Below are positions 3,601-56,638 of a stretch of DNA of 58,503 nt, in pieces. Where the stretch lies: positions 1 to 58,503 of IMG/VR virus record IMGVR_UViG_3300032562_000025; one strand, 5' to 3'. Both the position numbers and the translations under genes were made by a program. The notes under the pieces are model-generated. The model was given only the letters and a program-made list of their open reading frames with translations, was not told the origin of the DNA and did not search any database. The stretch comes from a virus. Lineage: Duplodnaviria > Caudoviricetes. How positions within the stretch are numbered: the first letter of the stretch is position 1; every line of letters starts with the position of its first letter.

Positions 3601-3646
3601 AGAGGTAACGTAATTTTTACGTTAATAATATAATTACGTTACCTCT
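3601..3646. terminator. Perfect 15-bp inverted repeat between the convergent arms (bidirectional terminator), containing a CGTAA-N3-TTACG site
   Basis: agaggtaacgtaatt (3601-3615) pairs with aattacgttacctct (3632-3646). Confidence 0.65.
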
Positions 3647-3664
3647 TTAACTTAATTTATTACT

Positions 3665-4297
3665 TTACTGGATTTGATAAAACTTAATAATAAATTGTGG
3701 ATTTGCCGTTGATGTATGATAACCTGGCAATACCGCCAGCGCACCAGTCGAACCACCATTCGCATATTGTTCTGACGATCCCCCGCTTAATCCTCCGCCA
3801 ATACCGCCCGTTGTCACGCTGTCCTTAAACTGGACAACATACCTGATATTGCCCTTCAAACCCTGTGCCTTGTCAATGAGTGTTTTCTCAAGATCTTCAA
3901 GTCGTATCCGTGATAGGAATGAACCACTATATATGGCGAGGACCTTCACGACCACATCCTTCTTGTAATCAAGCGGGATAAGGGCAGGGTTGGCGAACTT
4001 TGGAAGGGTCGTATAATCGCCGATTCTACCATTAAGAAGGATAGGAAGTTCAATGGGAGTTATATTTGGAGTTGTCAGCAATGGCCTGTCTGTGACTACT
4101 GACACGCCAGTATTGTTGTTCATGGGTGCATTGATACCCTGCACCTGTCCTTGAAGTTGCCCCTGTTGCTGACCCTGCGTTTGTGCCTGTAGGCTTGTGA
4201 CTGTGATTTTTGCCGGTTCATTGCACTGCTGATTCGCAAATACCGGACTTGCCATTAATACCAATACTAATGCTACCATTACTAAGTTCTTTCTCAT
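3665..4297 (-). CDS. Secreted/periplasmic protein with signal peptide and Q/G-rich segment
   Basis: MRKNLVMVALVLVLMASPVFA-NQQ, QGQQQGQLQGQVQG, RBS AGGAGG before ATG 4297. Confidence 0.7.
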   Translation of the reverse strand: MRKNLVMVALVLVLMASPVFANQQCNEPAKITVTSLQAQTQGQQQGQLQGQVQGINAPMNNNTGVSVVTDRPLLTTPNITPIELPILLNGRIGDYTTLPKFANPALIPLDYKKDVVVKVLAIYSGSFLSRIRLEDLEKTLIDKAQGLKGNIRYVVQFKDSVTTGGIGGGLSGGSSEQYANGGSTGALAVLPGYHTSTANPQFIIKFYQIQ

Positions 4298-4359
4298 TTT
4301 GTTACCTCCTTTTATTTTGATATATACAACTCTTGTTTTCCCAAATTGTCTTGAATGAG

Positions 4360-5569: not shown

Positions 5570-6823
5570 TCATTTATTTTTATGCTTTTCATTATATTCA
5601 TCAGTCAATTTAACATAAAAGTCAGCATTATAAAACCACACACCACCTTCACCCTTCGGCCCAATAAACTGTTTAACAACACGCCCAGTTCGAGTTACCG
5701 TATTCATTACGTTATCAAATTTACTTGAATCCAAATCCCTCCAAGTCATGTCAATTAATTCCTTTTCATTAATTGCTTTTCTCAAATTCATTATCTGAAA
5801 TATTGTATCAATCTCTGAAGTTACTTCAGATTTACCAACAGCACGAAAGACATTGACCATATCAACTTCAATTTCTTCAATCAATTGAATTGATTCTTGA
5901 ATATAATCCCATTCCATACTTAACTTGCTTGTTTTTGCTGCTCCACAAACTTGAGCAACTTTCAATATGTAAGATGGTTTCCTTGAATACCAACCATTGA
6001 ATGTTGGATCTTTACATAAACGATCAGGATTATCTTCCTCATATTCATTATACCAATTATCCCACTTTTCACCTGAATCCTTAGAAAATTCATAATTTCC
6101 TACCATTCTTGAAATCACAAATAAGTCATCAATTAAATGTGCTTCCAATTTTTGAATTTCCTTACTATTTACCGGCCTCGAACATTTCTTATATTTTTGT
6201 GTAGCCCAGATGAATAATATTCTACTTGTCAAACCACCACCAATTGCTGAACTTGGAAAACATGAAGCAACTGAATCTGGTGTTGTAGCTGCAATTAAAT
6301 TTAAGAAAGGTGATGGAATCTTATTCGAACCTGAATGTTTTGTTCTGTACTTCCATGGAATTTCCTTTGAATCAAATAAATCAGTAAGCAAGACAAGCAT
6401 TTTTGTATTTTCCTTTTTCTGACCTAAAAATGATTCAAATTCCCTTGAGACGATGTTCAATGAAGAATGTCTAAATAATGTCCCATCTGGCATTTGTTCA
6501 TCAGTTGCTGATGTTTCCAAATCGTCGAGCAATGCTTCCTTCGATGTTGCATCTGCTGACTGAACCAACTCGGTTATGTTTGACATTATCTTAACACCAA
6601 AATCAATAGCTTGGCTCTTACGAGCCCGACCTGGTTCAGCAACAAATACTAAGTAAAGATTTGGATAAACACGCAATCGGCCCAAATTTAAGCAAATTTT
6701 TTTTCTCAATGCTCCAGCAATTACTGAAATTCCTGTCCATTTTTGAAATAACCTTGCTGGTTCGGTGTCCTCAGTATATTGCATATATGTTTTAAGCCAA
6801 TCCTTCAACTTACGATCAGCCAT
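5570..6823 (-). CDS. DUF3987/YfjI-like P-loop ATPase, putative replicative helicase
   Basis: YPNLYLVFVAEPGRARKS (Walker A variant), SREFESFL, LLTDLFD, IGGGLTSRILF. Lies downstream of PolA. Confidence 0.7.
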   Translation of the reverse strand: MADRKLKDWLKTYMQYTEDTEPARLFQKWTGISVIAGALRKKICLNLGRLRVYPNLYLVFVAEPGRARKSQAIDFGVKIMSNITELVQSADATSKEALLDDLETSATDEQMPDGTLFRHSSLNIVSREFESFLGQKKENTKMLVLLTDLFDSKEIPWKYRTKHSGSNKIPSPFLNLIAATTPDSVASCFPSSAIGGGLTSRILFIWATQKYKKCSRPVNSKEIQKLEAHLIDDLFVISRMVGNYEFSKDSGEKWDNWYNEYEEDNPDRLCKDPTFNGWYSRKPSYILKVAQVCGAAKTSKLSMEWDYIQESIQLIEEIEVDMVNVFRAVGKSEVTSEIDTIFQIMNLRKAINEKELIDMTWRDLDSSKFDNVMNTVTRTGRVVKQFIGPKGEGGVWFYNADFYVKLTDEYNEKHKNK

Positions 6824-7178
6824 TGATAATATCCCTGACCATTTGGTTTGAAATTAAACTTGACTTTGGTATTATTGGTATATTTAATTCATTTGCTAAC
6901 TTAATTTCGTCTTTCATTCCATTGGATATACACTCACCATATAACCATATTTCATCAATTATTCCTCGCTTAAATAATTCCTTACTATTTGCAATTCCTC
7001 TCATTCGTTCTCTCTTATTATCATCATTTAAGGCTAAGCAATCACTAATGTAAGGTGCATATGGAATAACATTATTAATTATTATATTTATATTTCTTAT
7101 AATATTTAATATTTTAGCTATATTATCTTCAACATTTCCACTTATCGGGTGAGCTATAAATACAACTTTAACTGACAT
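6816..7178 (-). CDS. DUF4406-like (nucleoside deoxyribosyltransferase-fold) protein
   Basis: VFIAHPISG...DEIWLYGECISNGMKDEIKLANELNIPI. Confidence 0.7.
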   Translation of the reverse strand: MSVKVVFIAHPISGNVEDNIAKILNIIRNINIIINNVIPYAPYISDCLALNDDNKRERMRGIANSKELFKRGIIDEIWLYGECISNGMKDEIKLANELNIPIIPKSSLISNQMVRDIING

Positions 7179-9558
7179 AATCTACCTCCCTTAAATCCTT
7201 CCAATTGTAACCGTATTTAAAATCAGAATCGACAATCATTTCTTCATGATTAACCATTATGACTTCCCTCATATGCTTCCTTAAATAATGCATCGCTTCG
7301 TACATTGTATCGTCAGTATCCTTAACCAAGACATAAACTGCATCATGCAATTGAAGCCATAAATGAATTAAGTCCACAATTTCATTATCTTCATACATTC
7401 TTACAATTGAACGATTCATTAAGTCACCAATCGTTGACTGTGGCTTGTATGAAAAGGCAGACTTAAATAATGAATCTCCCCATCTTTCTAAAAACCGATG
7501 CTGTCTTCCAAATAAATTAGCTAACGTTCGTGTTTGTCTCAATTCCTCAATAATTGAAGCTTGCCAAATTTTAAGTAATGGATTAGCAATATCATCCCTT
7601 TTTAATAATGACCTTGCCTCACCCAATGAGCAACCCAAGTGATCGGACAACGTCCCAGGCCCCATATCATAATTCCTTGCATGACGGATTGTTTTTCCCA
7701 CTTTCCTCATCTTCGGAGTTACATCATTTATATCTACACTGAATAAATCGGCTGCCTTCAAAATATGAACGTCCCATTCCTTATGCTTTTTACGCTCAGA
7801 AGTGGTTTTCCCAAATGATTCCTTAAACACCGAAATCATCCTTCGATCATTACTTAAATAAGCAACAACAACTGCTTCAGCTTGAATATAATCTGAAGTG
7901 ATGATTCTAAATCCCTTAGGTGCAATATACATTGATCTCGTGATTTCAGGAATGTTCTGCAAATTACCCGAACCGAAGGGAAGGATTATTGATTCAGATG
8001 AAGACCATCTTCCAAATGACTTCCTTCCTTCATCATCTTCATCCTTTGAATCAATTTTCTTACCTGTTATATTATACGAAGTATGAACCTTACCTTCAGG
8101 GCTTATATCAACATTAAGAAAGTTCAATAAGGTAAGGTTTTTCTTATGCTCAAGGATTAATGTAAATCCTGGATTATCCTTAACTGTCCGTTCCAAATAT
8201 TTAAGTGCATTTTTATCTGTGGTTATTTTTCGCTCATCACTTGCCTTCTTCCTTCGTTTATACTGAGTTGGTATATTAAGATCAGTATATAATAATTGTT
8301 GTAATTGTTTACTTGAACGATAATTAATTTTCTTCCCGAATAATTCCTCCAATCCTTTTTCAGTACTTTCAATAATTCCTTCAACTTCCTTAAGCAATCG
8401 TAAGCGTTCATCTTCATCAATCAATGTCCCTTGCAATTGAAGCATCATCGCTGGAGGTAATTGGCGCATTTCCCAATTATAAACATCCGTTTGATTAACT
8501 TCATTTAACTTTTTACTAAGCACATCAGCAATTCCATACATATTACAAACGTCACAAGCATTGTAATAAGATGGATGCTGAGTGTTGAAATGTTTCCAAG
8601 GTGGAACATCCAAACAAATTGAAGCCAAAAAACCCAAATCCCTTGGAAGTTCAGGCCATACGATATGAGCTGCAATTAATGTATCCATATGAATTCGCTT
8701 AATATGAATACCATGATTAAGCATTGTAACGATTGCATCGTAAGATGCGTTCTGAATGATGATTTCCTTTTCCTCAAGGACACGAGCAATCCAATACCAT
8801 AATTCAAACTCATCATTTTCAGGATAACAAGGAGACATTCCTCGCATTATCCAAGTTGACATTGCGTAATTCCTTGAATGGCCAAGGCCAATAATTGAGA
8901 TATGACTTCCTGGCTGAACGGTTTCAACGTCCAAGCCAATGACTTTCTTACCAGGGTCAATTAAGATTTCCCTACAATAATTAATAAATTGTTCCCTTGA
9001 TGCATCAGGGATAATTATTCGATTATCAACTGGCATTTGTGGATGCTTTGAGTGGAATTTTGCTTTCTTTAAATCCATAAGTGTTGGGAAGAAATTCTTA
9101 AACTCACGATTGATATTACTTGGATGATATGTGCATATAACCTTTTGGCCTTGAACTAAGTTTGAAGGAATGGTATATCCCCTAAACTTACTTATTGCTT
9201 TTTCACCAGTTAATGCCCACAACGCATATGATCCTAAGCCAATAACAACATTAGGCTTATTCCTTTCAATGTCTTCCTTCAATTCCTGAATCCATCCGCT
9301 TAATTCAGGTTTGGGCATGGTACATTCCTTATCAAGAAAATATTGATCCATCCTGTTGAATTGAGGTCGCTTCCTTGCCACGTTGACAATCAAACATTCA
9401 GCTCGATTAATCCCCGCTTGACTCAATAACCAGTTTAATGTTTTACCTGAAACTCCATTGTTTGAAAATGGCAAACCTTCCCTATCTTCATTTTCACCTG
9501 GAGCTTCGCCCACTATCATTATCTTTGAATGTTTTGGGCCAGTTAAACCAACGTACAT
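7168..9558 (-). CDS. polA: Family A DNA polymerase with N-terminal uracil-DNA glycosylase (family 4-like) and 3'-5' exonuclease domains
   Basis: UDG VGEAPGENEDREGLPF and TYHPS. Exo LDVET/QNASYD/YNACD. Pol motifs SDYIQAE, RKVGKTIRHARNY, LQLHDAV. RBS AAGGAG before ATG 9558. Confidence 0.92.
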   Translation of the reverse strand: MYVGLTGPKHSKIMIVGEAPGENEDREGLPFSNNGVSGKTLNWLLSQAGINRAECLIVNVARKRPQFNRMDQYFLDKECTMPKPELSGWIQELKEDIERNKPNVVIGLGSYALWALTGEKAISKFRGYTIPSNLVQGQKVICTYHPSNINREFKNFFPTLMDLKKAKFHSKHPQMPVDNRIIIPDASREQFINYCREILIDPGKKVIGLDVETVQPGSHISIIGLGHSRNYAMSTWIMRGMSPCYPENDEFELWYWIARVLEEKEIIIQNASYDAIVTMLNHGIHIKRIHMDTLIAAHIVWPELPRDLGFLASICLDVPPWKHFNTQHPSYYNACDVCNMYGIADVLSKKLNEVNQTDVYNWEMRQLPPAMMLQLQGTLIDEDERLRLLKEVEGIIESTEKGLEELFGKKINYRSSKQLQQLLYTDLNIPTQYKRRKKASDERKITTDKNALKYLERTVKDNPGFTLILEHKKNLTLLNFLNVDISPEGKVHTSYNITGKKIDSKDEDDEGRKSFGRWSSSESIILPFGSGNLQNIPEITRSMYIAPKGFRIITSDYIQAEAVVVAYLSNDRRMISVFKESFGKTTSERKKHKEWDVHILKAADLFSVDINDVTPKMRKVGKTIRHARNYDMGPGTLSDHLGCSLGEARSLLKRDDIANPLLKIWQASIIEELRQTRTLANLFGRQHRFLERWGDSLFKSAFSYKPQSTIGDLMNRSIVRMYEDNEIVDLIHLWLQLHDAVYVLVKDTDDTMYEAMHYLRKHMREVIMVNHEEMIVDSDFKYGYNWKDLREVDYVS

Positions 9559-9559
9559 T

Positions 9560-10876
9560 TTATTTATTCTCCTTCTGCTTTTCAATCCACTGCCCAATCC
9601 TTTCAACTGTAATCAAATAAGATTCATCCGAAATGTCGCAAGCAATTACGCTTAACTTTTGTTCAAGCCCCGCTTCAATAAATGCTCCACTCCCCATAAA
9701 TGGATCAGCCATAACCATACCCGGCAATGTGCATCGCTTAATTAATTCCATGCCAAGAGCTAATGGTTTTTCAGCTCCATGCTTTTTCTCACTTGGATTC
9801 ATTCGTGGCAACTGAATCCAATCAACCTTCCCTTCAACAATTAACTTCGATTCTGCTTTTCGAGCAAATAAACACATTTCATATGCTGAAGTTGGCCATT
9901 TACTTGGTTGGTTGGATTGTCCACTTGAACCCTTAATCCAGACAAACGGTTTTACATGAACAATCCAGCCGGCTTTTTCAAATATTTCCTTAATCTTCCA
10001 AAAATTCTCAGGGCCCAAAAACACCCAAGCATGTGCGTTGTCCTTTGTAAATCGGTAAGATTCAATTGCTAATGCTTCATATAAATCAAAGGCAATATCA
10101 TGGTCATCTTCATAAGTGAAACCCGTACCTGAAAACTCACCACCAGTTTGCCCACCGATTCCGATAGCAATTTCATCAATATCAATTCCATAAATCGGAT
10201 CAGTTAAAAGTAAATCAACTGATTTACTCGGAATTGTTTTCATAAAAACCTTCGCATCTGCCTTTGAAATAATCACTGGCAATTCAACATCCTTCGTCAT
10301 TTCTTTATATTTTTCAAGTGCATCAATACGTCTTACAACATTTTCAATGCCTTTGGCTGCTTTCTTAATCTCGGTTTTTGTTTTTGCTTCTTTCAATTCA
10401 GGATATTTGTGAATCATTTCTGCCAATTGTAACGCTTCCCTTACGTTACCTTCCGTTCTGCCCATTACTTCAGCCGTATCTTCAAGTCGCCAACCTTCAG
10501 GATTTGAACGATCTGAAGCTGACCCATGACGTTCAATCCTTATCCGATGCAATTCTTCAATTGCTAAAACTTCTTCAGCAGGAGTGAAATTTTCTCTCTG
10601 CAAATTTTCTTCAATTTCCATTTCTCTCATTTCACTTTTATCAAGTGTATCGTTAAAACAACAGTGTGCATTTATACCTAAAATCATGCAAGCGGCTAAT
10701 CGCCGACCACCTGCAATTAATTCATAATTTCGATTTATCAATATGGGTAATAACTGACCATACTTTTTGATTGAGTCGGCCAATTCATTTATTTTATTTA
10801 TATCTTGTCGAACACGTGGTAAATCTTCATTAATTTTAATTTGAGATGGATTAACTTCGAGGATTTCCTTACCCAT
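9560..10876 (-). CDS. ParB-like N-terminal domain + HTH fused to an N6-A/N4-C DNA methyltransferase
   Basis: LADSIKKYGQLLPILI, LIAGGRRLAA, EENLQRENFTPAEE, HTH WRLEDTAEVMGRTEGNV. MTase TDPIY, H..EKP, DPFMGSG (beta-class motif order). Confidence 0.88.
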   Translation of the reverse strand: MGKEILEVNPSQIKINEDLPRVRQDINKINELADSIKKYGQLLPILINRNYELIAGGRRLAACMILGINAHCCFNDTLDKSEMREMEIEENLQRENFTPAEEVLAIEELHRIRIERHGSASDRSNPEGWRLEDTAEVMGRTEGNVREALQLAEMIHKYPELKEAKTKTEIKKAAKGIENVVRRIDALEKYKEMTKDVELPVIISKADAKVFMKTIPSKSVDLLLTDPIYGIDIDEIAIGIGGQTGGEFSGTGFTYEDDHDIAFDLYEALAIESYRFTKDNAHAWVFLGPENFWKIKEIFEKAGWIVHVKPFVWIKGSSGQSNQPSKWPTSAYEMCLFARKAESKLIVEGKVDWIQLPRMNPSEKKHGAEKPLALGMELIKRCTLPGMVMADPFMGSGAFIEAGLEQKLSVIACDISDESYLITVERIGQWIEKQKENK

Positions 10877-10891: not shown

Positions 10892-11134
10892 TCATTCCAT
10901 TTTCATCTTCATTAAATCTTTTTGAGACAATCCCAACTTCTTAATCAATTCCTTTTCAGAGTCCGTCAACGTAAAATTTACGTTACCTGACTTCTTTCCT
11001 TTTGTAACCTTAACTTTTGAAGCAATATATGTTTGAATGTCAATATTCCTTCGTTTACGATATTCAGCAAACATTTTAACTTGTTCATCGTGAGTTGATT
11101 GAAGGAATAATGGTTTTAACTGTTCAAATCTCAT
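10892..11134 (-). CDS. Hypothetical protein
   Basis: ORF in the operon with coupled start/stop. Contains a CGTAA-N3-TTACG site at 10970. Confidence 0.6.
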   Translation of the reverse strand: MRFEQLKPLFLQSTHDEQVKMFAEYRKRRNIDIQTYIASKVKVTKGKKSGNVNFTLTDSEKELIKKLGLSQKDLMKMKME

Positions 11135-12285: not shown

Positions 12286-13022
12286 TTTTTCACCACCTTG
12301 TTTAAATGTTGCATAACTTCAATATAATTGTTACCAACAAAATCAGGAAGTAAATGTTCAATTCCACTCAAACGTGATCTTGCCCGTAAAAATCCAATTG
12401 GTACTGTTTGAAGTAAATATATTGTTTTGATTACTCCATTAATATTTTCCCTTTTTGTTGTAGCATAATAAACTTCATCGAAATAACCAGTAATTAATTT
12501 TGGTAGTTGGCCAGGTAATGATGGGTCAACTCTAATAACTGCACCTGTTGCTTTATCTGTAATAATTTCATCATGAGAAATTAAAACAATATTACAAGGT
12601 AAACTTATAATTTGTCTTAATTTACCCTCCATTAAGTTTCTTACTAATGAATAGTGTACTTGCCATAATGGACCACCTGCTTCATTCCTCTTCGGGTCAA
12701 GGGCTAATGCCTGTTCCATAGTTACTGACTCCATTGACGTTAAATCATCTACAACTACTGTCTGGTAAACTCCTTCTTTTGCTTTTTTAATAACTTCAAT
12801 ATGTGCTTTTTCGAATTCTCTCCAGCCTTGCTGTGTTAATTGGAATGTATCATAATCAAAATCTTTTCCTTTGTATGAAATTATACTGTTAGAAAAATCA
12901 TAAACATATCCTTTTGTAGGAAAAGTTGAAGCAAATATACTTTTTCCTGTTGAAGGAGGCCCAATAATTAGACATTTAATAAATTCAGTATTAACTGTTA
13001 CATCCATTGCACTTGATGGCAT
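12282..13022 (-). CDS. AAA_24/Sak4-like ATPase (recombinase)
   Basis: GPPSTGKS Walker A, VVVDDLT Walker B, NIVLISH, GYFDEVY, ARSR. Confidence 0.85.
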   Translation of the reverse strand: MPSSAMDVTVNTEFIKCLIIGPPSTGKSIFASTFPTKGYVYDFSNSIISYKGKDFDYDTFQLTQQGWREFEKAHIEVIKKAKEGVYQTVVVDDLTSMESVTMEQALALDPKRNEAGGPLWQVHYSLVRNLMEGKLRQIISLPCNIVLISHDEIITDKATGAVIRVDPSLPGQLPKLITGYFDEVYYATTKRENINGVIKTIYLLQTVPIGFLRARSRLSGIEHLLPDFVGNNYIEVMQHLNKVVKK

Positions 13023-13042
13023 TTTAAATCACCCCTTTAAAT

Positions 13043-13690
13043 TTAGTCAATTATTTTTGGATAAAAATCAACTGGAAACATTGCCTCAATAATTTCAGGC
13101 TTATTTTTAAATGCATCTCTGAAAAATCGTTGAGCAATTACTTTATCATTATCACTTAACTTCATATATTTTTCAAACATTGACTTTGCATAAGTTAATT
13201 CATTCTTGAATGACCATGCCTCGTCAACTTTTGCAAATACTTCAGATCTAATTGAAGATGTTTCTTTAACAAACTTATCATATTCATCTTTCTTTTTTGT
13301 AAACTCCTTTTTAAGCTTTTCATTTGTTATCAGCATATCCCTGACTTTATATATATTCTCCCCTGTGTAATATTTCTCTTGTTGCAATGATAAATCAGTA
13401 TCAGGTTCAGTCCATTGATATGAATAACCTATTCCACTGTAATCATACTTCATTTTGAGTACACTCATTTCAAGAACTTTTTGTGCGTCTTCTGCATTTT
13501 TAAACATCATACTTCCAACTTTAAAAACGATCTCGGTTTTTTGTAAGTCAAATTCACGGTATTCAGGTAATTGTGGTTCCATTACTGGCAAAATACCAGC
13601 AAATGCAATTTCAACATCAATTAAGTTTTGAATCTCATCCTGAGATAATTCCGTCAACTCATCATTAGTTAATTCATTAAAACGCTTCAT
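13043..13690 (-). CDS. Hypothetical protein
   Basis: 215-aa ORF with RBS AGGAGG. Confidence 0.65.
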   Translation of the reverse strand: MKRFNELTNDELTELSQDEIQNLIDVEIAFAGILPVMEPQLPEYREFDLQKTEIVFKVGSMMFKNAEDAQKVLEMSVLKMKYDYSGIGYSYQWTEPDTDLSLQQEKYYTGENIYKVRDMLITNEKLKKEFTKKKDEYDKFVKETSSIRSEVFAKVDEAWSFKNELTYAKSMFEKYMKLSDNDKVIAQRFFRDAFKNKPEIIEAMFPVDFYPKIID

Positions 13691-13766
13691 GTTTAAACCC
13701 TCCTGGTTTATTTATTTCAATTCAGATACCGTAAATATTACGTTATCAATTTATTGATTAATTGAC

Positions 13767-14870
13767 TTATTCTCCATCCTCAATCAACTCAACATCCCAA
13801 AATTGTTGCTTAAACCCTTCAGGAATGTTCTCAACAAATTCACTCGGTTCAGTGTTACTCGTACATAAGCCATAAAATTGACACTTACGGTTATAATCAA
13901 AGCAAGAATCGAATTGACATGGAAAATAATTACTTTTCTCACATTGATAAATATCTCCGCACGTTTTAAGGAAGGACATTTTCCACTTAAAAATATCATC
14001 ATCTGTAAATATTTGTGGAGTACGTGAAAAATCAATCGTTACCTTTCCATATTCACCTGACTTGCCCTTCCTTGAAAACAACTGGTGCAATGTCACCAAT
14101 GCGCCTGTGGCATCGAAGTTAAGCACACGTTTAGCAGCATAAGAATACCCAATGATTTGAGGGGAACGATATAAACGGGCTTCTTGAATAGCTAACGATT
14201 GTCCAGTTGTCTTAAATTCATCAATCCACTTCGTTTCGTTTAACTTCATTTGTAAATCCAACTTCCCTGTATAAACAATAGGTGGTAAGTAACCAAACAT
14301 TTCAGCTTCAATCTCCGTTTCCAACTCCATTACCAATGAAAACACTTGTTCAGTTGCAATAACTTCCAATGTATTTTGGTCAGCTTCAAAATGAGTAATG
14401 TAATTAATAAATGAAGTGGTACAATTTTCAAAGGTACGATAATCATCCCAGAACATTGCACCTTCACTACTTTCATCCCATGACTTTTTACCAAGTAAGA
14501 TCGCATTATTAATAGCAATACTTCGTTTAGCCCATCCGTATTGCTTAATTGTTCCATAAAACCCTTCCATAAATGCATGAAAACAACTTCCATATCTTAA
14601 TGCAGTTGAGCCATAAATGGATTTAAGACCAAGCATATGGCTTAACTGGAATTTTCGTAAGCATCGAACTGCCGTTGATCGCTTCGTATTGTCCAATCTA
14701 ATTTCAGTCAAATAAGAACGAATTGGTAATGTCTGAACTTGTTCTTGATTTGAATTGGTTAAGAATTGATTTTGATTTGAGTATGATGGTTTTATTATTG
14801 CTTCGGATTCTAAATTGAATTCTTCGATGACTTCAGTATTAAGGACATTAATCTCAATTTCATTTGCCAT
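13767..14870 (-). CDS. PD-(D/E)XK (RecB/Cas4-like) exonuclease
   Basis: RCLRKF, YGSCFH, GKLDL, IDEFKTT, QIIGY and the C-terminal Cys cluster SCFDYNRKCQFYGLC. Confidence 0.85.
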   Translation of the reverse strand: MANEIEINVLNTEVIEEFNLESEAIIKPSYSNQNQFLTNSNQEQVQTLPIRSYLTEIRLDNTKRSTAVRCLRKFQLSHMLGLKSIYGSTALRYGSCFHAFMEGFYGTIKQYGWAKRSIAINNAILLGKKSWDESSEGAMFWDDYRTFENCTTSFINYITHFEADQNTLEVIATEQVFSLVMELETEIEAEMFGYLPPIVYTGKLDLQMKLNETKWIDEFKTTGQSLAIQEARLYRSPQIIGYSYAAKRVLNFDATGALVTLHQLFSRKGKSGEYGKVTIDFSRTPQIFTDDDIFKWKMSFLKTCGDIYQCEKSNYFPCQFDSCFDYNRKCQFYGLCTSNTEPSEFVENIPEGFKQQFWDVELIEDGE

Positions 14871-14904
14871 TTTATCCACCTTTCCCTCATTTCAGGGTTT
14901 TAAA

Positions 14905-14960
14905 AACATGGCTAAGGATATGTGATCAAGGGGTAGGATTCACATTCCTTAGCTCATGTT
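14905..14960 (-). terminator. Long imperfect hairpin (terminator or RNA processing site)
   Basis: aacatg-gctaagga-tatgtga pairs with tcacat-tccttagc-tcatgtt, with a U run downstream on the minus strand. Confidence 0.55.
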
Positions 14961-14987
14961 GCCTTCAATTAAATGAAGGCTCGAAAA

Positions 14988-15637: not shown

Positions 15638-15641
15638 TTCT

Positions 15642-15890: not shown

Positions 15891-15934
15891 AAAACCTCCA
15901 TGATTTCATCATTAATCGTTCATTTAATACCCAT

Positions 15935-15963
15935 ATATTATCATAATTCAATGAAGATGTCAA
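15935..15963 (-). promoter_or_regulatory. sigma70-type promoter (leftward)
   Basis: TTGACA-17 nt-TAATAT with extended TG, nearly identical to the promoter at 20080-20108. Confidence 0.75.
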
Positions 15964-16003
15964 TATAAATATTGAAGTTCATGCAATTATATTAAGTTCA
16001 TAA

Positions 16004-16453: not shown

Positions 16454-16456
16454 CCC

Positions 16457-16949: not shown

Positions 16950-16952
16950 GGT

Positions 16953-46718: not shown

Positions 46719-49700
46719 TGGAACTTGAATTAGACCCCATTGAGAAAGAAGTAAGTAAACCTTCTCCTGCAATTACACAAAAGGGAAGTGGTGGATTGCA
46801 ACTTGATCCAGTTAAGGGTGGTGAAGAATCATCAATGATTGATAAGTTTATGGGAATGTTTAAGCCTAATGATAAACCAACAAACTCTAATTTGATTAAC
46901 TTAATTGGTGATGATGTAAGTAAGGCTGAACCTAAGCAAGTTGACAATTCAGGTGCATTAACTAAAGCAAGTAGAAGAATGATTGAACAAGCAATTAATA
47001 TTAATGCAAGAGTTGTTGGACAAATGGGCTTAATGACGAATCCTGAACCCGCTGAGAATCCTGGTTTACTTACAATGGTTGGTAAGAATATAAATGAAGC
47101 AACGCAAAGACAACTTAGTATTCCCGAAAAATTTCTAAGTTTAAGGGAAACATTAATAAGGCAAGCGCAGTCGGAACCACATAAGACTGAAGGTGAAAAT
47201 ACTCCTGAGCGTAAGTCCAAGACAATTGATTTTATTACTAAAACAATTCCAGATAGTTTGAATAGACTTATATATCAAACAGTACATCAACCTGAACAAT
47301 TGTATAATGCTTATAAACCTTCGGTAAGTAAACTCATTGATGCTTATACTGGTGTGACTAAAGATAGAGGAAAAGATTTAAAGGAAGGTTCTGAAGAATT
47401 TTTAAGTACTACTGGTGAGGTAGTTAAGGGAATTGGTGATTGGTTTAGTAAGGGAATTGGTGGAGTTGAAGATAAGGAAAAGTTTTTAAGATTTTCATTA
47501 GACCAACTTAAGGAAAATTATTCAACTGATCCAGTGGGAAGTGCAGCTTCACTATTTACACTTTATAAAACAATAGGTTCAATTGGTAAAGGTGCAGGAG
47601 TACAAAAAATATCAGACCATTCAAGAGAAGAATGGCTTAATGTTATTGATGAAGAAATGAAGAAACGTGCTCCAAAACAATTGAAGGGGGAAGTTGGGCA
47701 AACTGAGGATATACCATATGCTAAGTGGGAAGATGTTAAACAGAAAGTTTTACCTGAAGGAATGAAAAATGAAATTAAAGCACTTAATGCATCCAAAGAA
47801 CTTATCTTAGATGAAAAAAGTACCAAAGGTAAAATTTATGATGAAGTTGCTAAATCAAGGGAAGAAGCTAAGGTAAGTGAGCCTGAAATCGTTAAATCAT
47901 TACCCAGTGAAGAAAGATTTAAGCATGGTGCATTAGTTCAAATTAATTCCCTTACTCCAGCAATAATTGAAGGCAATGGAATCATTGTTGGCAAGGAAGG
48001 TGGGACACATCCTGATATACTTAAAGAACATGACATGGAGCCGGAGACGGTTCATGAACGTGGATTTACAACTCCTGAAGGATTATTCCTTGATCGAAAG
48101 GAAGGCAAGGAATGGATTGAAAATAATCAACCTGAAATTCATGAAGAATTGGTTAAAATGAATGGTAAGGATTATGAACTTCATTCTCAGGATTATAATA
48201 AGGCTAAGGAAAATTTGAGCGAGGAAAAGGAGGCAATTGATGCCACTGAAAAAGGGAAAGTCCCCGAGGGTAATATCGGAGAATATAGTGGAACTGATAA
48301 GATCGGGGAAACCCCAGAAGCAGGCGAAGGCAATCGCTTACCGGAAGGCGGGGAAATCATTGAAGGAGAAGGGAAGGGAGCTGAAGAAGGATTAAAACTT
48401 GATGAAGGTTCGATTAAGGAACCCGACGCAAAAATTACGGTATCTGAATCGAAATCAATTGAAGAACAAGCAAAGGAATTAGGTTTAACTGCAAAGAAAT
48501 GGCCAGATCATGATATGTATACAATTGTTGATCCTGAGAATAAGGGTAATTTTGAAGTTAGGGTTGGTGAAAACGTAAAGGATAAACTTGAAAAACATCG
48601 GAGTAAGGGATGGGATGAAATTAAACCGAAGGAAGAATTGAAAGGAAGTGATCGTTGGAAATCACCAACCGCTGAATTTTTAAATAAGCAATCTGAAACG
48701 AAGATGCCTCCTGAAGAATGGGGAAAAAGGATTGATGCTTGGGAAAATAAGAATCCACATATTAAGGATGAGAATAAATTTAACGGGTTGAAATCATTTA
48801 TTGAAAGTAAAAAAGGGGATAAAACACTTAATAAAAAGGACATAACTGAATTCCTTGAATTGAGTAAGAAAGATTGGGCAGTGAGGGATCAGGTTGCAGG
48901 TGACACACTTAATAAAAAAGAAAGAGCACGTTGGCAAGAACTTGCTGAGAAAAAAGAATTAAGTGAAATTGAAGAAACTGAATTTGATAAACTACAAGAA
49001 AAAGAAATTGAAGATAAAGATAGATGGGAATCTCATAACATACCTGGAGGAATTAAGGGGAGTGAAAAAGTTTATACGATTTCGCTTAATAAGCCTTCAA
49101 GAATGAAAGCAAATGAACGTCTCGATAAATTTAATACTGAAGCAATAAATAAACATGGAGATGTAAGTAAATGGCCTGATGATGTTTTTGATGAATATAT
49201 GAAACTTAAGGATGAATTTAATAATACTGAATATGGTTATCAATCTCCTCATTTTCCTGAGCAGACGAATGTCATCCTCCACTTCCGGACTCAGGAACAT
49301 CTTGATGCTAATGGAAATAAGGGATTAATGATTGAAACGATTCAGTCGGATTTACATCAAGAAGCTGCAGGACGTTATAAAGGAGATATTGTTTTTAAAA
49401 CAGGCAAAGAAAATGATAAGTGGTTTGTATATGATGTAAAACATAAAAATGATAAAGTTTTTGAGCATAACGGTAAGCAATTAAATGAGGATACAGCTAA
49501 TAAATTAATTAAAAAGTGGAATGATGAACTTCATCTTGATCAATATTATCCACCAAATGCTCCATTCGAAAAAACATGGGCTGAGGTTGGATTAAAACAT
49601 GCCCTTGACATTGCAACTAAAGATCCTGAAATTAAATGGGTTGCTTGGCCGAACGGTAAGGTTCAGATGGAAAGGTGGGGGAAAGATATTACTACTGACG

Positions 49701-52700: not shown

Positions 52701-52819
52701 AAGAATTAAAAATTATAAAACCAATTTTACTTAAAAAAGTTACTAATGCTCATGCAAACGGGAAGATAACTGGAAGTTTATATAAGGAGTATATGGAAGG
52801 AATAAGGGAATTGCCGTAA
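46718..52819 (+). CDS. Giant (2033-aa) ejection / polyvalent internal virion protein
   Basis: Largest ORF, last in the ejection cluster. Coiled coils plus globular motifs ([12 protein letters not shown]; HFR...[10 protein letters not shown]...PNAPFEKTW). Confidence 0.7.
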
Positions 52820-52838
52820 AATTTACGGTATCTGAATA

Positions 52839-53138
52839 ATGCGGAGGTTAAGCAAAGTGAATATGAATAGAGATTTACCACTTGAAGAAGGATATTATAT
52901 TTTCAATGTCGTGTGTAAGGAAGAAGGTGGGCCTGAAATCGTGGCAAGGATGTTGACGATTAAGATAAGGGAGGCACAAAAGGATTGGGATATTGAATTT
53001 ATAAGTAATGCTAAAATTGACGCAGACTCAGGTGGTCATGGACGCTCGATATATTTCGGGGCTCAATGTACTGTCTTACGTAAAAAGAAAAGAATGGATG
53101 AGGCTAAAATTCCTCCAGCAGCGGTGAAAATAAAATGA
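52839..53138 (+). CDS. Hypothetical protein
   Basis: Coupled to the ATP-grasp gene. Start could be at MNRDL. Confidence 0.55.
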   Translation: MRRLSKVNMNRDLPLEEGYYIFNVVCKEEGGPEIVARMLTIKIREAQKDWDIEFISNAKIDADSGGHGRSIYFGAQCTVLRKKKRMDEAKIPPAAVKIK

Positions 53139-54427
53139 AAGATTTATCTAAACTCAAATGTAGGGTTTATGATTATGGTTTATTTACTTCAGTTGCAATG
53201 GCACTTGGACCATTAAACAATGGCTTTGGAACTGTTGAGTATTATTCACCTTGGATGGATTCCTTCCCCTCCCCGAATAAGCGATATATTGGAAGGGACA
53301 TTCCTGGCCTTACCCGAATATGGGAGTTCTGGGATGATCTTGACTCAGTTGATACGTTTGTTTTCCCTGATGTTGGTGACGTGTCTGAACAACGTGAGTT
53401 GAGACGGCAAGGTCGAGCCGTATTTGGAACTGGCGGGATTAAAAAGGATAAGGATATTGCTGAACTTGAAGTTGATCGTGAGTTATTTAAGAAAACATTA
53501 ATTCGTCGTGGTTTGGCTGTACCCAAATGGAAGTTGATTAAGGGTATTGACAATTTACGACAATATGCTAAGGACAATCCAGGGTTTTGGGTTAAGCCAA
53601 ATGTTGGAGAACGGGGAGTATTTGAAACATTTTATGTTGATTCTTATGGTACTTCAGCAAGTAAGCTTGACCAAATTGCCCATGACTTAGGAGTTGCAAG
53701 AAATGTATGTGAATTTATGACAGAGAAACCAATTGAAGGAAGTGAACCTGGAGATGATATGTTCATCTGCAATGGAATTCCATTTGAAATGGGCTTATAC
53801 GGTTGGGAGAATAAGGGTGATTCATATTCATGCCGAGTGATTAAAATGAATGAAGTTGTTTTACCACTTAAAAAGATACATACTGCAATGCTTCCAATTT
53901 ATAAGGATACAAATGTCAACGGAGCAATTTCAACTGAAGTAAGAGTAGGTAAAAATAAGGTTCCATATTTCAGTGATATTTGTTCACGTTTCGGAAATCC
54001 TCCAGCTGGTGTTATAACATCCATCTATGAAAATTTTCCTCAGATTGTTCATGGAATTGCACATGGAGAAATAATTGAGCCTAAATTCAGGGCTAAATTT
54101 GGGGCTGAGTTAAGTGTTGATTCAGCTGATGCTGGAACCGAACCTGTCCCGTTTGAATTTAATCCTAAGAATGATTTACTTACTATTAAGTTAAGAACAG
54201 TATGTAAGGTTGGCGGAATTTTTACTCATATTCCTTTTCCAAGAAATGGTTCAACAATTGTTAAGGCTGTGGGATTGGGAAATACACAAGATGAGGCTGA
54301 AGCAAATTGTATGGAAGCTGCTGAAAAATTTCAGTGTCCTCATAAAAGTTATAATAAAACTTCATTTGATGACTTACGCAAATGTATTGAAGAAGGAAAA
54401 GCAAATGGCCTTGGAGGAACATTATGA
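53135..54427 (+). CDS. ATP-grasp ligase, PurD-like fold
   Basis: AELEVDRELFK, WVKPN, EKPIEGSE, STEVR, DICSRFGNPP. Confidence 0.75.
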   Translation: MKDLSKLKCRVYDYGLFTSVAMALGPLNNGFGTVEYYSPWMDSFPSPNKRYIGRDIPGLTRIWEFWDDLDSVDTFVFPDVGDVSEQRELRRQGRAVFGTGGIKKDKDIAELEVDRELFKKTLIRRGLAVPKWKLIKGIDNLRQYAKDNPGFWVKPNVGERGVFETFYVDSYGTSASKLDQIAHDLGVARNVCEFMTEKPIEGSEPGDDMFICNGIPFEMGLYGWENKGDSYSCRVIKMNEVVLPLKKIHTAMLPIYKDTNVNGAISTEVRVGKNKVPYFSDICSRFGNPPAGVITSIYENFPQIVHGIAHGEIIEPKFRAKFGAELSVDSADAGTEPVPFEFNPKNDLLTIKLRTVCKVGGIFTHIPFPRNGSTIVKAVGLGNTQDEAEANCMEAAEKFQCPHKSYNKTSFDDLRKCIEEGKANGLGGTL

Positions 54428-56178
54428 GTGGAACGATATTTGAAACAATTAAGATGAGAAGAGATACACTTGCAAACTGGACGGTTAATAATCCAATTTT
54501 AGAGCAGGGTGAAATTGGGTATGAGTATGATACATATCGAATTAAGTTTGGTAATGGTATTACTCATTATTTAAGTCTTCCTTACATTGGAAATGTATAT
54601 TCAAATTCAGTTACAACAATGACAGTCGGAACCGGAAGTAAAACATTCTTACTTGATGTTGGATTGGCATTTGCTCCAAATATGGTTGTAACAATTTCTT
54701 ATGCAACTGATCCTACAGTTTATATGATTGGTGTGGTTACGAGTTATAATCCAACTACTGGATATATTATCATTAATGTCACTTCAGTTGCTGGGTCAGG
54801 ATCGAGTTTAACTTCTTGGATTATATGGGCATCAAGTGGTGCACAAGGGCCTCAAGGTGTTGCTGGGCCACAAGGTATTCAAGGAACTCCAGGTAATTCA
54901 GGAACAAATGGAGTTGGTGTTCCTTCAGGTGGAGAAGTTGGACAAATCTTAGCAAAAAGTACAGTTACGGATTATGCTACTGAATGGATTGGGCAGATGC
55001 ATCCAAGTGCACGACAAACTGTTTTATCATCATTACTCGATGCAAATGGCTTACCAAATTTTATTTCAGTTGGAACGGGCTTGTCCGTAAATATTGCAGC
55101 ATTAGCAACACCAATCTTACTTTCATTTGCTGCGGGATTTGACGAACTTGGTGAGATTAATTACATTGGAGAAATAAGTGCTGATACTACAATTCCTTCA
55201 CTTACTGCAAATGTTATAAATTATTTATATGCTGAGCGTAATGCAATTACCGGAGCAATTACGTTGGGAGCAACTCCATATAAACCTAATTATGATGTTG
55301 TGAGTAAATCTCAATATGCTTCAACATATCCAACTCAAGATGCTTCCCATGTGAAGGCACTTTACCATGATGCAAATTTTTACCCATACTTTGCTACTGA
55401 TCCAACTAAATCACTCACTGGAACAATGAATGATAATTCATGGAGAAGTGTATATTATTCAGGTGTTCAGTATAGGTTTCATGTTGATCTTGGAACTGCT
55501 AAACTTATAGATAGGATAATGGTTGAAAATTTTCATGATTCAGGAACTGCAACTGATAATGGAGTAGGTGTATTTGAAGTATGGGGATCGAATACTGGAA
55601 GTTCTTTTGCTGAACTTACATATGGAACTGATACTGGATGGGATTTACTTACCACAAGTAAGGCAAGTTTAGTACATCATTACACCGCAGACGTTTCAGA
55701 TCCTCAGTATATAACGGTTACAAATACAACTCCATACCGTTATTATGCTGTAAAATGTGTCTCAAGTGATGGTGTTACATCAGTTGGAATACGAAGAATT
55801 GAATTTCAGCAAAAAGTTGATAATAGTTACTGGTTTGACATTATTAATTATATAATGAATAAATCAGTAAGTTCAGTTAATTATCCAAAGCAAATAGTGT
55901 TCCTTGGTGAAGCATTATGTGGTGTTTCAACAGTTACAAGTGTAGTTAATTATGCTTTAAATGGAGTTTATAATAGTGGTAATGTGGCTACAACTGCTAT
56001 TTTAACCACCAAGAATCATAATATTGGGACTGATTTAATTAACTTAACATTAAGTGAAGGAGAAGAAGGTGGAAGAAGGCAAATTGCAAGTGTTGATTTA
56101 GTTGGACTTACACATAAATCAGTAAGTTGGGTAGCAGCATTAGGTACTTCACGGTTAATAATTAAAAGGTTATTTTAA
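54424..56178 (+). CDS. Tail fibre: Mtd/hyaluronidase-type N-terminal anchor, short collagen repeat, discoidin (F5/8C)-like domain
   Basis: IKMRRDTLANWTVNNPILEQGEIGYEYDT..KFGNG..LPY, GAQGPQGVAGPQGIQG, VDLGTAKLIDRI..VWGSN..YRYY. Confidence 0.8.
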   Translation: MSGTIFETIKMRRDTLANWTVNNPILEQGEIGYEYDTYRIKFGNGITHYLSLPYIGNVYSNSVTTMTVGTGSKTFLLDVGLAFAPNMVVTISYATDPTVYMIGVVTSYNPTTGYIIINVTSVAGSGSSLTSWIIWASSGAQGPQGVAGPQGIQGTPGNSGTNGVGVPSGGEVGQILAKSTVTDYATEWIGQMHPSARQTVLSSLLDANGLPNFISVGTGLSVNIAALATPILLSFAAGFDELGEINYIGEISADTTIPSLTANVINYLYAERNAITGAITLGATPYKPNYDVVSKSQYASTYPTQDASHVKALYHDANFYPYFATDPTKSLTGTMNDNSWRSVYYSGVQYRFHVDLGTAKLIDRIMVENFHDSGTATDNGVGVFEVWGSNTGSSFAELTYGTDTGWDLLTTSKASLVHHYTADVSDPQYITVTNTTPYRYYAVKCVSSDGVTSVGIRRIEFQQKVDNSYWFDIINYIMNKSVSSVNYPKQIVFLGEALCGVSTVTSVVNYALNGVYNSGNVATTAILTTKNHNIGTDLINLTLSEGEEGGRRQIASVDLVGLTHKSVSWVAALGTSRLIIKRLF

Positions 56179-56200
56179 AATAAATTAAGGAGGATTTAAA

Positions 56201-56638
56201 ATGAGAAAGTTTTTATTGTTTTTGATGTTCATCGTAATATTTACGCTACCTCCAATGATCCCAAATTCATACTCTGCAACAACGTGCGTTGTTTCTCAGG
56301 TTGATTTGGATAACATATCACGGATTACTTGGGTGTGTACGGGTGCTTCAGGTACGGGTACTGCATCCAAGGCAGTTCGTGGGTGGGTTTACAATGTTGA
56401 TGTTACTCCAGGCGGAACTGGTCCGACAGTTGGAAGTGGGTTTACATTAGTTACTTCAGATAGCAATGTTGATGTTATGGGAGCTAATGCATCTGCAATG
56501 TTTGCAGCTACACCAACAAGGGCAGTACCATTATCAAGTGGCTGGGTTAATGGTACATTAAGTCCAGTGATAAGTGGCAATGTTGTTGTTAATGCAGTTG
56601 TTACAATACGGGCATGGATCTGGAAACAAAATAATTAA
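56201..56638 (+). CDS. Signal-peptide-bearing beta-rich protein
   Basis: MRKFLLFLMFIVIFTLPPMIPNSYS-A, RBS AGGAGG. Confidence 0.7.
   Translation: MRKFLLFLMFIVIFTLPPMIPNSYSATTCVVSQVDLDNISRITWVCTGASGTGTASKAVRGWVYNVDVTPGGTGPTVGSGFTLVTSDSNVDVMGANASAMFAATPTRAVPLSSGWVNGTLSPVISGNVVVNAVVTIRAWIWKQNN

Follow-up and report, generated by a model that had tools for sequence, protein, structure and literature searches.

What purpose can a short palindrome serve when it recurs every few kilobases along a phage genome, and which protein would read it? The question is posed by an IMG/VR virus record (IMGVR_UViG_3300032562_000025; 58.5 kb, linear, estimated to be 79% complete), called the window below, a name that stands for the whole stretch of 58,503 nucleotides analyzed, in which the sequence CGTAA-N3-TTACG is present in 14 exact copies. 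An original prediction, made from the letters of this sequence, had taken the copies for genome-marking sites of a phage protein and had named several candidate proteins. We describe here the evenly spaced palindrome family to which they belong, present across uncultured podoviruses, and its link to a ParB-methyltransferase fusion protein, neither of which we found described in the open-access literature. Dispersed, co-evolving phage sites (the stoperators, and the start-associated sequences and their extended form, SAS/ESAS) and dispersed operators of the ParB family (KorB) were already known.

Enrichment and Composition of the Palindrome

The enrichment of the palindrome in the window is real. 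In 100 dinucleotide-preserving shuffles the core occurred 0.04 times on average and once at most, none of them reaching 14, and the mononucleotide expectation is 0.07 copies, both figures falling within the bound of 0.1 given originally. All 14 core coordinates in the original prediction were recovered, and the two one-mismatch cores it reported, at 5699 and 48427, are the only ones. Its description of an A/T spacer and of a one-sided tail on most copies also held: the spacer consists entirely of A/T in 13 of the 14 exact sites (the exception, at 22456, is ACA), and the tail nTA[CT]CT is exact in 14 of the 16 oriented sites (14 exact and 2 one-mismatch), with a near match, TTATCA, at 5699 and no tail at 16708. 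The string TTACGnTA[CT]CT occurs 16 times, 12 on the + strand and 4 on the − strand; these occurrences are 13 exact sites, the site at 48427, and two half-site copies with tail, at 3634 and 10441, which had not been listed before. The spacer, too, has a direction with respect to the tail (AAT/AAA in 9 sites vs. ATT/TTT in 1). Because both tail and spacer are asymmetric, we take the functional unit to be about 21 nt long, CGTAAAWTTTACGnTAYCTS; a window-type site can be written as CGTAAAATTTACG, followed by the tail.

Placement and Spacing in the Window

The sites are strongly intergenic. Open reading frames (ORFs) of at least 50 aa cover 93.6% of the window, and the remaining 6.4% contains the full length of 8 of the 14 exact sites; moreover, the site at 52815 overlaps a stop codon only, and that at 20253 is coding only if one accepts a 51-aa ORF of the central non-coding region that is spurious. 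The sites occupy the narrow spaces separating successive genes, the central non-coding region, and, at 3609, the convergence of the two gene arms. The emphasis first laid on placement within coding sequence is literally correct for 5699, 10970, 16708, 32501, 48427, and 56233, but misleading given these eight non-coding copies. The claim that sites occur every few kilobases in both arms fared better: the 16 sites are more evenly spaced over the genome than random placement would make them (coefficient of variation 0.56, P = 0.01, the 79%-complete contig being treated as a circle), and even spacing was found again in the relative G001 described below (P = 0.002) and in a Desulfofustis phage (P = 0.03). 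Relative to local gene direction, the tails point with it in 8 cases and against it in 6.

Conservation in a Syntenic Relative

Queries with the large terminase subunit (TerL) and the capsid protein retrieved an IMG/VR contig of 59.4 kb, G001, which is syntenic with the window and circularly permuted, its proteins being 26–88% identical to those of the window and about 70% overall. G001 contains nine exact cores and no one-mismatch copy, and its consensus reads CGTAAT-n-ATTACG, with the tail nTAATCTT at one flank and nTATTTAA at the opposite one. All nine sites are syntenic, i.e., they lie between or within the same orthologous genes as the window sites 52815, 43748, 35731, 25531, 20253/20528, 17725, 13730, 3609, and 56233, and the consensus has changed in concert; the conservation in relatives that had been proposed as a check is thus found. 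At 56233, the two copies occupy the same position in a signal-peptide coding region while the encoded residues differ (IVIFTLP vs. IVIITVF), and each copy fits the consensus of its own genome, which points to selection on the DNA and not on the peptide. A fixed position combined with a concerted change of consensus is what the co-evolution of a cis-element and its trans-acting reader leaves behind. The ortholog of window gene 53135–54427 is split over both ends of G001 (L075–L077) and the gene order wraps, for which reason G001, labeled linear and 75% complete, is probably a complete, circularly permuted genome. Neither an integrase nor an immunity repressor was seen among 13 translated G001 ORFs read by eye, with no family scan of G001.

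The orientation of the tail is less constant than its position: it is the same in five syntenic pairs and flipped in three. One rival reading takes the sites for strand-specific nicking targets, such as those of phage T5, or for recombination hot spots through which modules are exchanged. The 12 to 4 excess of + strand tails in the window would suit nicking, a PD-(D/E)XK nuclease is among the core genes of these phages, and the sites bracket differences between the window and G001, 32501 forming one boundary of an insert (28887–32537) and 56233 together with 3609 bounding a variable host-interaction region. The strand bias is missing from G001, however (4 vs. 5), the motif of the wider family is symmetric, and no nicking enzyme could be linked to the sites, which makes this a very improbable explanation. 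Of the functions first envisaged, programmed nicking and the pausing of ejection are thus both unsupported, given that the relative lacks the strand bias.

Along the window, the sites are arranged as follows. The exact core 3609–3621, with tail TTACCT (3603–3621, − strand), stands at the convergence of the two gene arms and corresponds to G001 46576. The motif is doubled here, a half-site with tail, ATTACGTTACCTC (3633–3645, + strand), pairing with 3602–3614 to form a perfect inverted repeat with arms of 13 bp, GAGGTAACGTAAT ... ATTACGTTACCTC, 17 nt apart (3602–3645); an analogous doubled layout, GGAGATTAG ... CTAATCTCC, is seen at G001 46548–46597. The one-mismatch core CGTATTCATTACG, with the weak tail already mentioned (5699–5717, +), lies within the DUF3987 primase gene, and the other half-site with tail, TTACGTTACCT (10441–10451, +), within the ParB-methyltransferase gene, 94 nt upstream of whose start codon the exact core with tail TTACCT at 10970–10988 (+) falls in an 80-aa ORF. 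The exact core with tail GTATCT at 13724–13742 (−) lies between genes, 39 nt ahead of where gene 13043–13690 starts, and matches G001 36490; just upstream of the latter, at about 36440–36480 of G001 (L076), we noticed by eye a look-alike of a tRNA-gene 3′ end, GGTTCAAATCC. The tail-less exact core 16708–16720 lies in a 113-aa ORF and is without counterpart in G001, while the next one, with tail ATACCT (17725–17743, +), is intergenic, has its tail against the local gene direction, and matches G001 31323.

Two exact cores flank the AT-rich center of the large non-coding region, one on the left with tail CTACCT (20253–20271, +) and one on the right with tail TTACCT (20522–20540, −), so that their tails point toward each other; G001 27360 has the same layout. 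The exact core with tail ATACCT at 22456–22474 (+) is in a 514-bp non-coding stretch before the packaging genes, and that with tail GTATCT at 25531–25549 (+) lies between the TerL stop, 10 nt away, and the next start, 43 nt away, with G001 22949 and L074 2484 as its syntenic counterparts. With tail TTACCT, exact cores follow at 32501–32519 (+), in the last 12 codons of a Wzy_C-like insert gene, the next start codon following after 35 nt; at 35731–35749 (+), intergenic, at the tip of a longer hairpin of −19.6 kcal/mol (G001 15576); and at 43742–43760 (−), intergenic, with the tail against gene direction (G001 8119). The gene for a 2033-aa protein contains the one-mismatch core CGCAA... with tail GTATCT (48427–48445, +), and its stop codon is overlapped by an exact core with the same tail (52815–52833, +; G001 1017). 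The last exact core, with tail CTACCT (56233–56251, +), is in the signal-peptide codons of gene 56201–56638, the same place as G001 56730.

A Family of Dispersed Palindromes

An alignment of 40 ParB-methyltransferase sequences retrieved 80 viral loci of up to 21 kb, a protein for which there are hundreds of full-length homologs on phage-sized contigs; viral scans with PolA alone and with a two-sequence ParB-methyltransferase alignment retrieved almost nothing, and a metagenome scan with a PolA alignment gave only unrelated loci, 27–28% identical. De novo gapped-palindrome scans showed that many of the ParB-methyltransferase loci have a dispersed 5-3-5 palindrome of their own. The commonest, GTCAA-N3-TTGAC, occurs 132 times in 1.29 Mb (79 loci, at least once in 55 of them) vs. 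twice in 1.38 Mb of 163 unrelated control loci, which are shorter on average (14 kb vs. 19 kb), and some of the ParB loci are near-duplicates. Variant palindromes are GTTAA-N3-TTAAC (L309), GTGAA-N3-TTCAC (L311 and L315), GTAAA-N3-TTTAC (L280), and GTTTA-N5-TAAAC (L241 and L242). Among the 59 loci with a length of 12 kb or more, 19 had a palindrome in at least four dispersed copies; the corresponding control figures were 0 of 32 for loci drawn at random from viruses and 1 of 11 for chunks from capsid relatives. Among whole genomes, 15 sites were counted in G009 (47 kb, 99% complete), 11 in G010 (44 kb, 100% complete), and 11 in G008 (37 kb, 84% complete), and a reversed control pattern had no match in any of these three. 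The distant capsid relatives G003–G007, with which the window has only structural genes in common, showed no analogous motif.

Isolated phages that share the ParB-methyltransferase–PolA–primase gene order gave differing results: the Desulfofustis phage (L237, OP947158.1) has nine evenly spaced copies of a 25-bp palindrome, GCTAT-GTCCCAAnTTGGGAC-ATAGC, a Vibrio phage (L238, MF497422.1) has four copies of CAATCG-N6-CGATTG, and a Microcystis phage has no clear palindrome. Flank-anchored motif discovery was uninformative, its pattern being too strict. A site is found at most 170 nt upstream of the ParB-methyltransferase gene in 17 of the 79 loci, and the kilobase upstream of this gene is the richest of all (23 of 132 sites), the first kilobase of the gene itself having none; this pile-up is compatible with autoregulation, to which it lends weak support.

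From 116 distinct GTCAA-type sites, the family consensus reads AGAAAn-GTCAA-www-TTGAC-nTTTCT, a symmetric element of 25 bp, as expected for the target of a dimer. The nTAyCT tail of the window corresponds to one arm of this flank, the other arm having decayed in the window and in G001. The geometry of the palindromes is kept across the family even though the hosts span 32–53% GC, and a motif that differs between relatives while its geometry is kept fits a phage-encoded factor. These observations bear directly on the suggestion that a host transcription factor recognizes the sites as its boxes, or that they are a host-wide repeat. The G001 core indeed resembles the box of the Fur-family regulator Zur, which is of the 7-1-7 type in Bacillus subtilis. 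The window spacers, on the other hand, never fit T-n-A, and the motif varies between related phages. Nor, among the matches listed, does core plus tail appear to behave as a repeat elsewhere: of 68 stretches of the viral collection, 65 have one match and 3 have two matches 66 bp apart, and a scan of genome contigs gave at least 120 stretches, from unrelated taxa, with one match each among the matches listed, bar one tandem repeat. A host factor is thus hardly credible as the reader.

A second reading, in which the sites act as RNA hairpins between cistrons, i.e., as processing sites, mRNA stabilizers, or translational operators comparable to the RNase III sites of T7 or to SAS/ESAS, would make use of the fact that either strand yields the same stem and that ribosome-binding sites follow closely behind the palindromes; within the tail, ACCTCC has Shine-Dalgarno complementarity and at 32501 could pair with the Shine-Dalgarno sequence 15 nt downstream, and SAS/ESAS offer a precedent (PMC3203893). 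The core alone, however, folds with only −1.4 to −3.4 kcal/mol (whole sites, −1.4 to −19.6), and the two one-mismatch sites of the window break pairing without compensation. Positions of the family flank that are not Watson–Crick pairs comprise 53 G.U, 74 A.C, and 156 other combinations (6, 3, and 13 for one-mismatch cores), which is near the 1:1:4 chance expectation and gives no excess of G.U, and the stem is invariant within a genome, with no site-by-site covariation. Some copies even lie in origin-like DNA between two outward-pointing sigma-70 promoters. The lack of a G.U excess, the invariance of the stem within a genome, and the copies in apparently untranscribed origin-like DNA favor a double-stranded site bound by a symmetric dimer, and we consider an RNA element quite improbable. 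Rfam 15 had no match in the whole window at gathering score, and intrinsic terminators were rejected as well, since none of the 23 terminator-like matches (no commoner than in shuffled sequence) coincides with a site and the core hairpin is weak.

Phage-specific promoters or promoter-proximal elements, used by a redirected host RNA polymerase or by an unrecognized phage polymerase starting in or near the tail, are a third possibility. The tail points to a gene at 13730, 22456, 25531, 32501, 35731, and 52815, the A/T-rich center resembles a −10 element (TAAAAT), and consensus host promoters are scarce. The 5-bp stem with its 3-nt loop recalls the hairpin promoters of the phage N4 virion polymerase, and in T7-like phages promoters and polymerases change specificity together. 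Against promoters stand the symmetry of the family motif, the mixed orientation of the tails in the window and their flipping in 3 of 8 syntenic pairs, the sites at gene convergence, inside genes, and in origin-like DNA, and a start codon that in many relatives follows only 11–25 nt past the palindrome. A −10 element at promoter spacing from the TTGAC/TTACG half-site was found at 8% of the 116 family sites vs. 8% of background, and at 1 of the 14 window sites; promoter-like matches in the window are not enriched either (87 vs. 84.9 expected in shuffled sequence for one segment, the other two being similar), and the sigma-70 reading was discarded on these two grounds. The T7-like polymerase family PF00940 matched none of five genomes (two of them 99–100% complete), but also none of 14 control genomes. 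Altogether, promoters appear improbable, and even pooled, the promoter, RNA, nicking/recombination, and host-factor readings remain on the unlikely side.

The ParB-Methyltransferase Fusion as Candidate Reader

The GTCAA core is kept across phages whose core proteins are only about 45–50% identical, so that one would expect the reader to belong to the conserved core proteins. Of the 50 loci that reach 15 kb, 48–50 contain homologs of each of seven window proteins: the DUF3987 primase, PolA, the ParB-methyltransferase, a 183-aa protein, an AAA_24 protein, the PD-(D/E)XK nuclease, and a 149-aa protein. Only the ParB-methyltransferase among them has a recognizable sequence-specific DNA-binding domain. 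Encoded at 9560–10876 on the − strand, it consists of a ParB N-terminal domain and a helix-turn-helix (HTH) fused to a CcrM-like, beta-class N6/N4 DNA methyltransferase, an assignment based on Pfam, on sequence matches to PDB entries, on an AlphaFold2 model, and on Foldseek. In Pfam, ParB_N matches residues 4–93 with E = 7e-10 and N6_N4_Mtase with E = 1.3e-17, while the HTH_ParB model does not match. In a phmmer search, the N-terminal 112 residues matched structures of Spo0J, Noc, and ParB with E-values down to 7.6e-12, the GxRR arginine patch of box II (G56 G57 R58 R59) is invariant in 40 homologs, and tblastn alignments with phage ParB-like proteins extend to about residue 160, through the HTH at about 128–160. 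In the AlphaFold2 model (pLDDT 87), the N-terminal half aligns over 195 columns with Noc (7nfu_B) and over 191 with ParB (7bnk), both constructs made of the N-terminal and DNA-binding domains, and the C-terminal half matches CcrM and M.BceJIV. The protein thus has both the ParB N-terminal NTPase fold and an HTH directly behind it, and its putative target, like that of ParB proteins, is a palindrome of 13–16 bp, present in several copies and replicon-specific.

The recognition helix of the fusion protein also appears to change with the palindrome. In the GTCAA-type loci, the 19 distinct helices conform to x-[ST/A]-[KR]-x-x-[VI]-hydrophobic-(E/D/small) and have no K, R, or Q at helix positions 7–8, whereas all four variant-core lineages with an extractable helix have R, K, or Q at position 7 or 8: TEGN[VI]R in the window and G001 (core CGTAA), DRSSVSK in L311 and L315 (GTGAA), THATIIR in L280 (GTAAA), and TKG[AS]ISQ in L241 and L242 (GTTTA-N5). 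The comparison, which covers four variant lineages (L309, with GTTAA, being left out) and is not corrected for phylogeny, is suggestive of covariation between helix and core. Core conservation, the ParB N-terminal domain with HTH, and this covariation all favor the ParB-methyltransferase, which was one of the candidates put forward originally.

Several observations weigh against this attribution, in addition to the narrow base of the helix comparison and the unequal control loci mentioned above. All loci of the family were retrieved through the ParB-methyltransferase, so that their association with the palindrome does not tell this protein apart from the other six core genes or from an effect of common descent. 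The GTCAA site is absent from 24 of the 79 ParB-methyltransferase loci, many loci are without any palindrome, and Microcystis phage Mel-JY34 has the fusion protein and no clear motif. The C-terminal dimerization domain of ParB is replaced by the methyltransferase, and none of the 59 window proteins scanned in Pfam proved to be a ParA (AAA_24 is a different family), although one could be encoded in the part missing from this 79%-complete contig. A symmetric ParB dimer leaves the one-sided tail of the window, flipped in three of eight syntenic pairs, without explanation. Motif IV of the methyltransferase reads TDPIYG in the window and G001 vs. TDPPYG in 38 other homologs, and since DPIY replaces DPPY, the enzyme may be impaired in these two phages. 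Two core proteins, of 149 and 183 aa, have no recognized function, and the fold of the former matches nothing solved. Finally, Staphylococcus phage EW, Siphoviridae sp. ctl617, and Streptococcus phage Javan105, which encode ParB-domain proteins, have no dispersed palindromes; they weigh little either way, since the alignment of each with the window protein ends ahead of the HTH or inside it. The DPIY variant, we note, occurs in exactly the lineage whose palindrome core has changed.

The main competitor is that the palindromes are operators of another phage regulator, either the 149-aa protein (14988–15437) or a fast-evolving small regulator, by which transcription between modules is controlled or blocked; the dispersed C1 operators of phage P1 are a precedent of the stoperator kind. 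The sites are intergenic at module boundaries, typically with the next ribosome-binding site and start codon 11–60 nt downstream, two copies lie in the central control region, and the consensus has changed in concert between relatives. With only two or three good sigma-70 promoters, extra regulation would be needed, and the asymmetric tail suggests a reader, or a partner of it, beyond a simple symmetric dimer. Proximity to start codons counts for little, however, as any element of 19–25 bp in a packed phage genome would land near one, and tail orientation is not tied to transcription. The persistence of the GTCAA core demands a conserved core protein, and no integrase or immunity repressor turned up among the 59 window proteins scanned in Pfam or the 13 G001 ORFs read by eye. 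The small regulators do not answer to this: the XRE protein and the protein encoded at 20745–21509 are both absent from G001, and the two-HTH protein 22852–23424 is missing from complete motif-bearing genomes, so that three of the original candidates lack support; a fourth group, the ribbon-helix-helix proteins, was not found at all in six Pfam scans of 59 window proteins. For the two-HTH protein we obtained Atlas leads only (HTH_17, scores 0.89–0.93) and two word-index homologs, and PHROGs returned no family for 10 candidate reader proteins. The 149-aa core protein, for which Atlas gave unnamed viral clusters only and the AlphaFold2 model (pLDDT 82) no solved fold at E ≤ 0.001, is an alternative candidate for the reader. 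As a whole, another regulator seems rather unlikely.

On balance, we propose that the palindromes are docking sites for the ParB-methyltransferase, similar to parS or to the operators of KorB, a reading drawn from sequence comparisons to which we give not quite an even chance. The idea of genome-marking sites for a phage protein stands to the extent that the palindromes are position-conserved, concertedly changed, even, and sequence-specific marks, and parS-like loading is the best supported of the functions first envisaged for them.

Proposed Mechanism and Its Implications

Under the docking model, a dimeric phage-encoded protein would recognize the palindrome as double-stranded DNA, the reader being the HTH of the ParB-methyltransferase and the sites working like parS or the KorB operator O_B. 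Docking might be followed by nucleoside triphosphate-dependent closure of a clamp and spreading along the flanking DNA, by extension from what is known of the ParB family, and a site every 3–4 kb would allow the spreading protein to cover the whole phage genome. Its purpose could be methylation of the phage's own DNA, gene silencing, or both. The fused CcrM-like domain suggests that methylation is delivered to the phage's own DNA. The palindromes might in this way serve a self-addressed epigenetic marking, recruiting a sliding ParB clamp-methyltransferase that would methylate, or otherwise mark or silence, the whole genome in cis while site-free host DNA is spared, a more specific proposal that we regard as possible but doubtful.

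If true, self-addressed marking would explain why ParB-methyltransferase fusions are common in phages, where they rank among the most frequent ParB-type proteins. Docking of the fusion protein, if true, would extend parS/KorB clamp loading from segregation and plasmid silencing to the delivery of an enzyme on a viral genome, and would show how phages could confine a DNA-modifying activity to their own DNA. In either case, the fusion proteins now have a candidate cognate site together with natural variant cores (CGTAA, GTCAA, GTTAA, GTGAA, GTAAA, and GTCCCAA), four of which are paired with helix changes. Even with another reader, the cis-element that this large group of uncultured podoviruses has in common, genome-wide, evenly spaced, and co-evolving, is a regulatory layer missing from current phage annotation.

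Genome Layout and Accessory Observations

The window, which stems from lake-water or freshwater metagenomes, appears to be the replicon of a lytic podovirus. Early and replication genes are read leftward from 20012 to 3665, and include, besides the ParB-methyltransferase, the DUF3987 primase, the AAA_24 protein, and the PD-(D/E)XK nuclease, a PolA (7168–9606) whose N-terminal part is a uracil-DNA-glycosylase-like domain (PF03167 superfamily, E = 1.7e-22); this fusion to a family A DNA polymerase is kept in 50 of 50 related loci. The rightward arm, from about 22.5 kb, encodes a gpA-type TerL, a P22-like portal, a 933W/GP4-type capsid protein, and the 2033-aa protein. For the latter, Pfam gave one sub-threshold match (DUF3696, E = 4.4e-4, 20.9 bits vs. 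a cut-off of 22), and a simple pattern search found neither T7-type nor DxDGD polymerase motifs, and a role as virion RNA polymerase was rejected on this evidence. No integrase or immunity repressor was detected among the 59 window proteins scanned in Pfam, no tRNA gene is present in the window, and megablast of 24 kb of it against GenBank phages gave no match.

The non-coding region 20040–20730 (690 bp) resembles a replication origin in its sequence organization, comprising GTTCAACG iterons, an inverted repeat CAATTGTCCATTGTCC / GGACAATGGACAATTG, a (TA)n center, and the two motif copies. Its consensus sigma-70 promoters point outward (TTGACA-17-TATAAT at 20665, and TTGACA-17-TATATT at 20108 on the − strand). 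The elements follow in the same order in the control region of G001 (27109–27718), but the repeats are AACGCCTAAACGCCTAAAC. A further near-consensus promoter, TTGACA-17-TATCAT, is contained in 22819–22860 and stops 5 nt ahead of the ATG at 22852 of the two-HTH protein gene, which suggests a leaderless transcript for this gene.

A three-gene block, 28887–32537, within the structural module is missing from G001. It includes a Wzy_C membrane protein similar to O-antigen ligases/polymerases (30912–32537, E = 6.4e-15), and site 32501 marks its right edge; the block looks like an inserted host-surface-modifying gene, which hints at a Gram-negative host. A tail-fiber-like protein (54424–56178) carries an Mtd_N domain, the N terminus of the major tropism determinant (E = 2.7e-12). 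Run X5, a freshwater metagenome from a different year compared over window positions 13000–32999, contains a diverged relative whose contigs are 80–95% identical, with 834 substitutions and small replacements in the early region at 18030–19821 and around 22525–23587. In run X3, loose ends appear at 32501 and at 32537 only because the 3609 region cross-aligns there by way of the motif that both have.

Comparison with Known Systems

Dispersed sites with a genome-wide distribution are best known from the stoperators of Cluster A mycobacteriophages, many repressor sites that lie mostly in intergenic positions across the genome (PMC9283540) and whose specificity co-evolves with the repressor (PMC6550527). 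The window differs from them in several respects. Stoperators are asymmetric, read by a monomer, and belong to temperate phages with an immunity repressor, while the core of the window is palindromic and of mixed orientation, and no repressor or integrase was found among the 59 window proteins scanned. Stoperators are also oriented with transcription; in the window the tails run with it 8 times and against it 6 times, and its only XRE protein is not conserved in G001.

The SAS/ESAS elements of Cluster K phages are 13-bp repeats found 11–19 times per genome beside translation starts, and no function is assigned to them in the available part of their description; about half are preceded by imperfect inverted repeats, and the consensus is genome-specific while positions are conserved across relatives (PMC3203893). 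SAS lack symmetry, point almost without exception in the same direction, and are bound to start codons, whereas the palindrome of the window lies 11 to more than 100 nt from starts and occurs also at gene convergence, in origin-like DNA, and inside genes.

Fusions of the ParB CTPase fold to a methyltransferase are frequent in phages and enriched in prophage regions (PMC12704722, 2025), and the window protein has the same architecture, PF02195 + PF01555. The part of that article available to us leaves the function of the fusions open, "perhaps in anti-defense", and gives no DNA site. A phage ParB-like protein was also described that activates a DNA-modifying dioxygenase (PMC13229309, 2026), so that ParB modules partnering DNA-modification enzymes have a precedent.

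With the ParB-parS and Noc systems, the window shares a protein with the ParB NTPase fold, GxRR, and HTH, and a palindromic target in multiple copies. The parS site is a 16-bp palindrome, clustered around the origin, which serves segregation together with ParA; the sites of the window, by contrast, are genome-wide and even, no ParA was found with them, and the ParB moiety is fused to a methyltransferase.

The closest parallel concerns KorB, a sliding clamp of the ParB family that acts as a global repressor. Its operator O_B is present in about a dozen dispersed copies on the plasmid RK2 of roughly 60 kb. This operator is a 13-bp palindrome of the 6-1-6 type, TTTAGC-G-GCTAAA, from which a CTP-dependent clamp slides and acts up to 1.5 kb away (PMC11790492). 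The window departs from this system in that its ParB is fused to a methyltransferase, that no KorA-like or ParA partner was found, that the replicon is an apparent lytic podovirus, and that the sites have a one-sided tail. As in the KorB system, in which a ParB-family HTH protein loads, slides, and acts at a distance, the targets are dispersed 13-bp palindromes, and O_B itself occurs in some copies beside promoters and in others far away from them.

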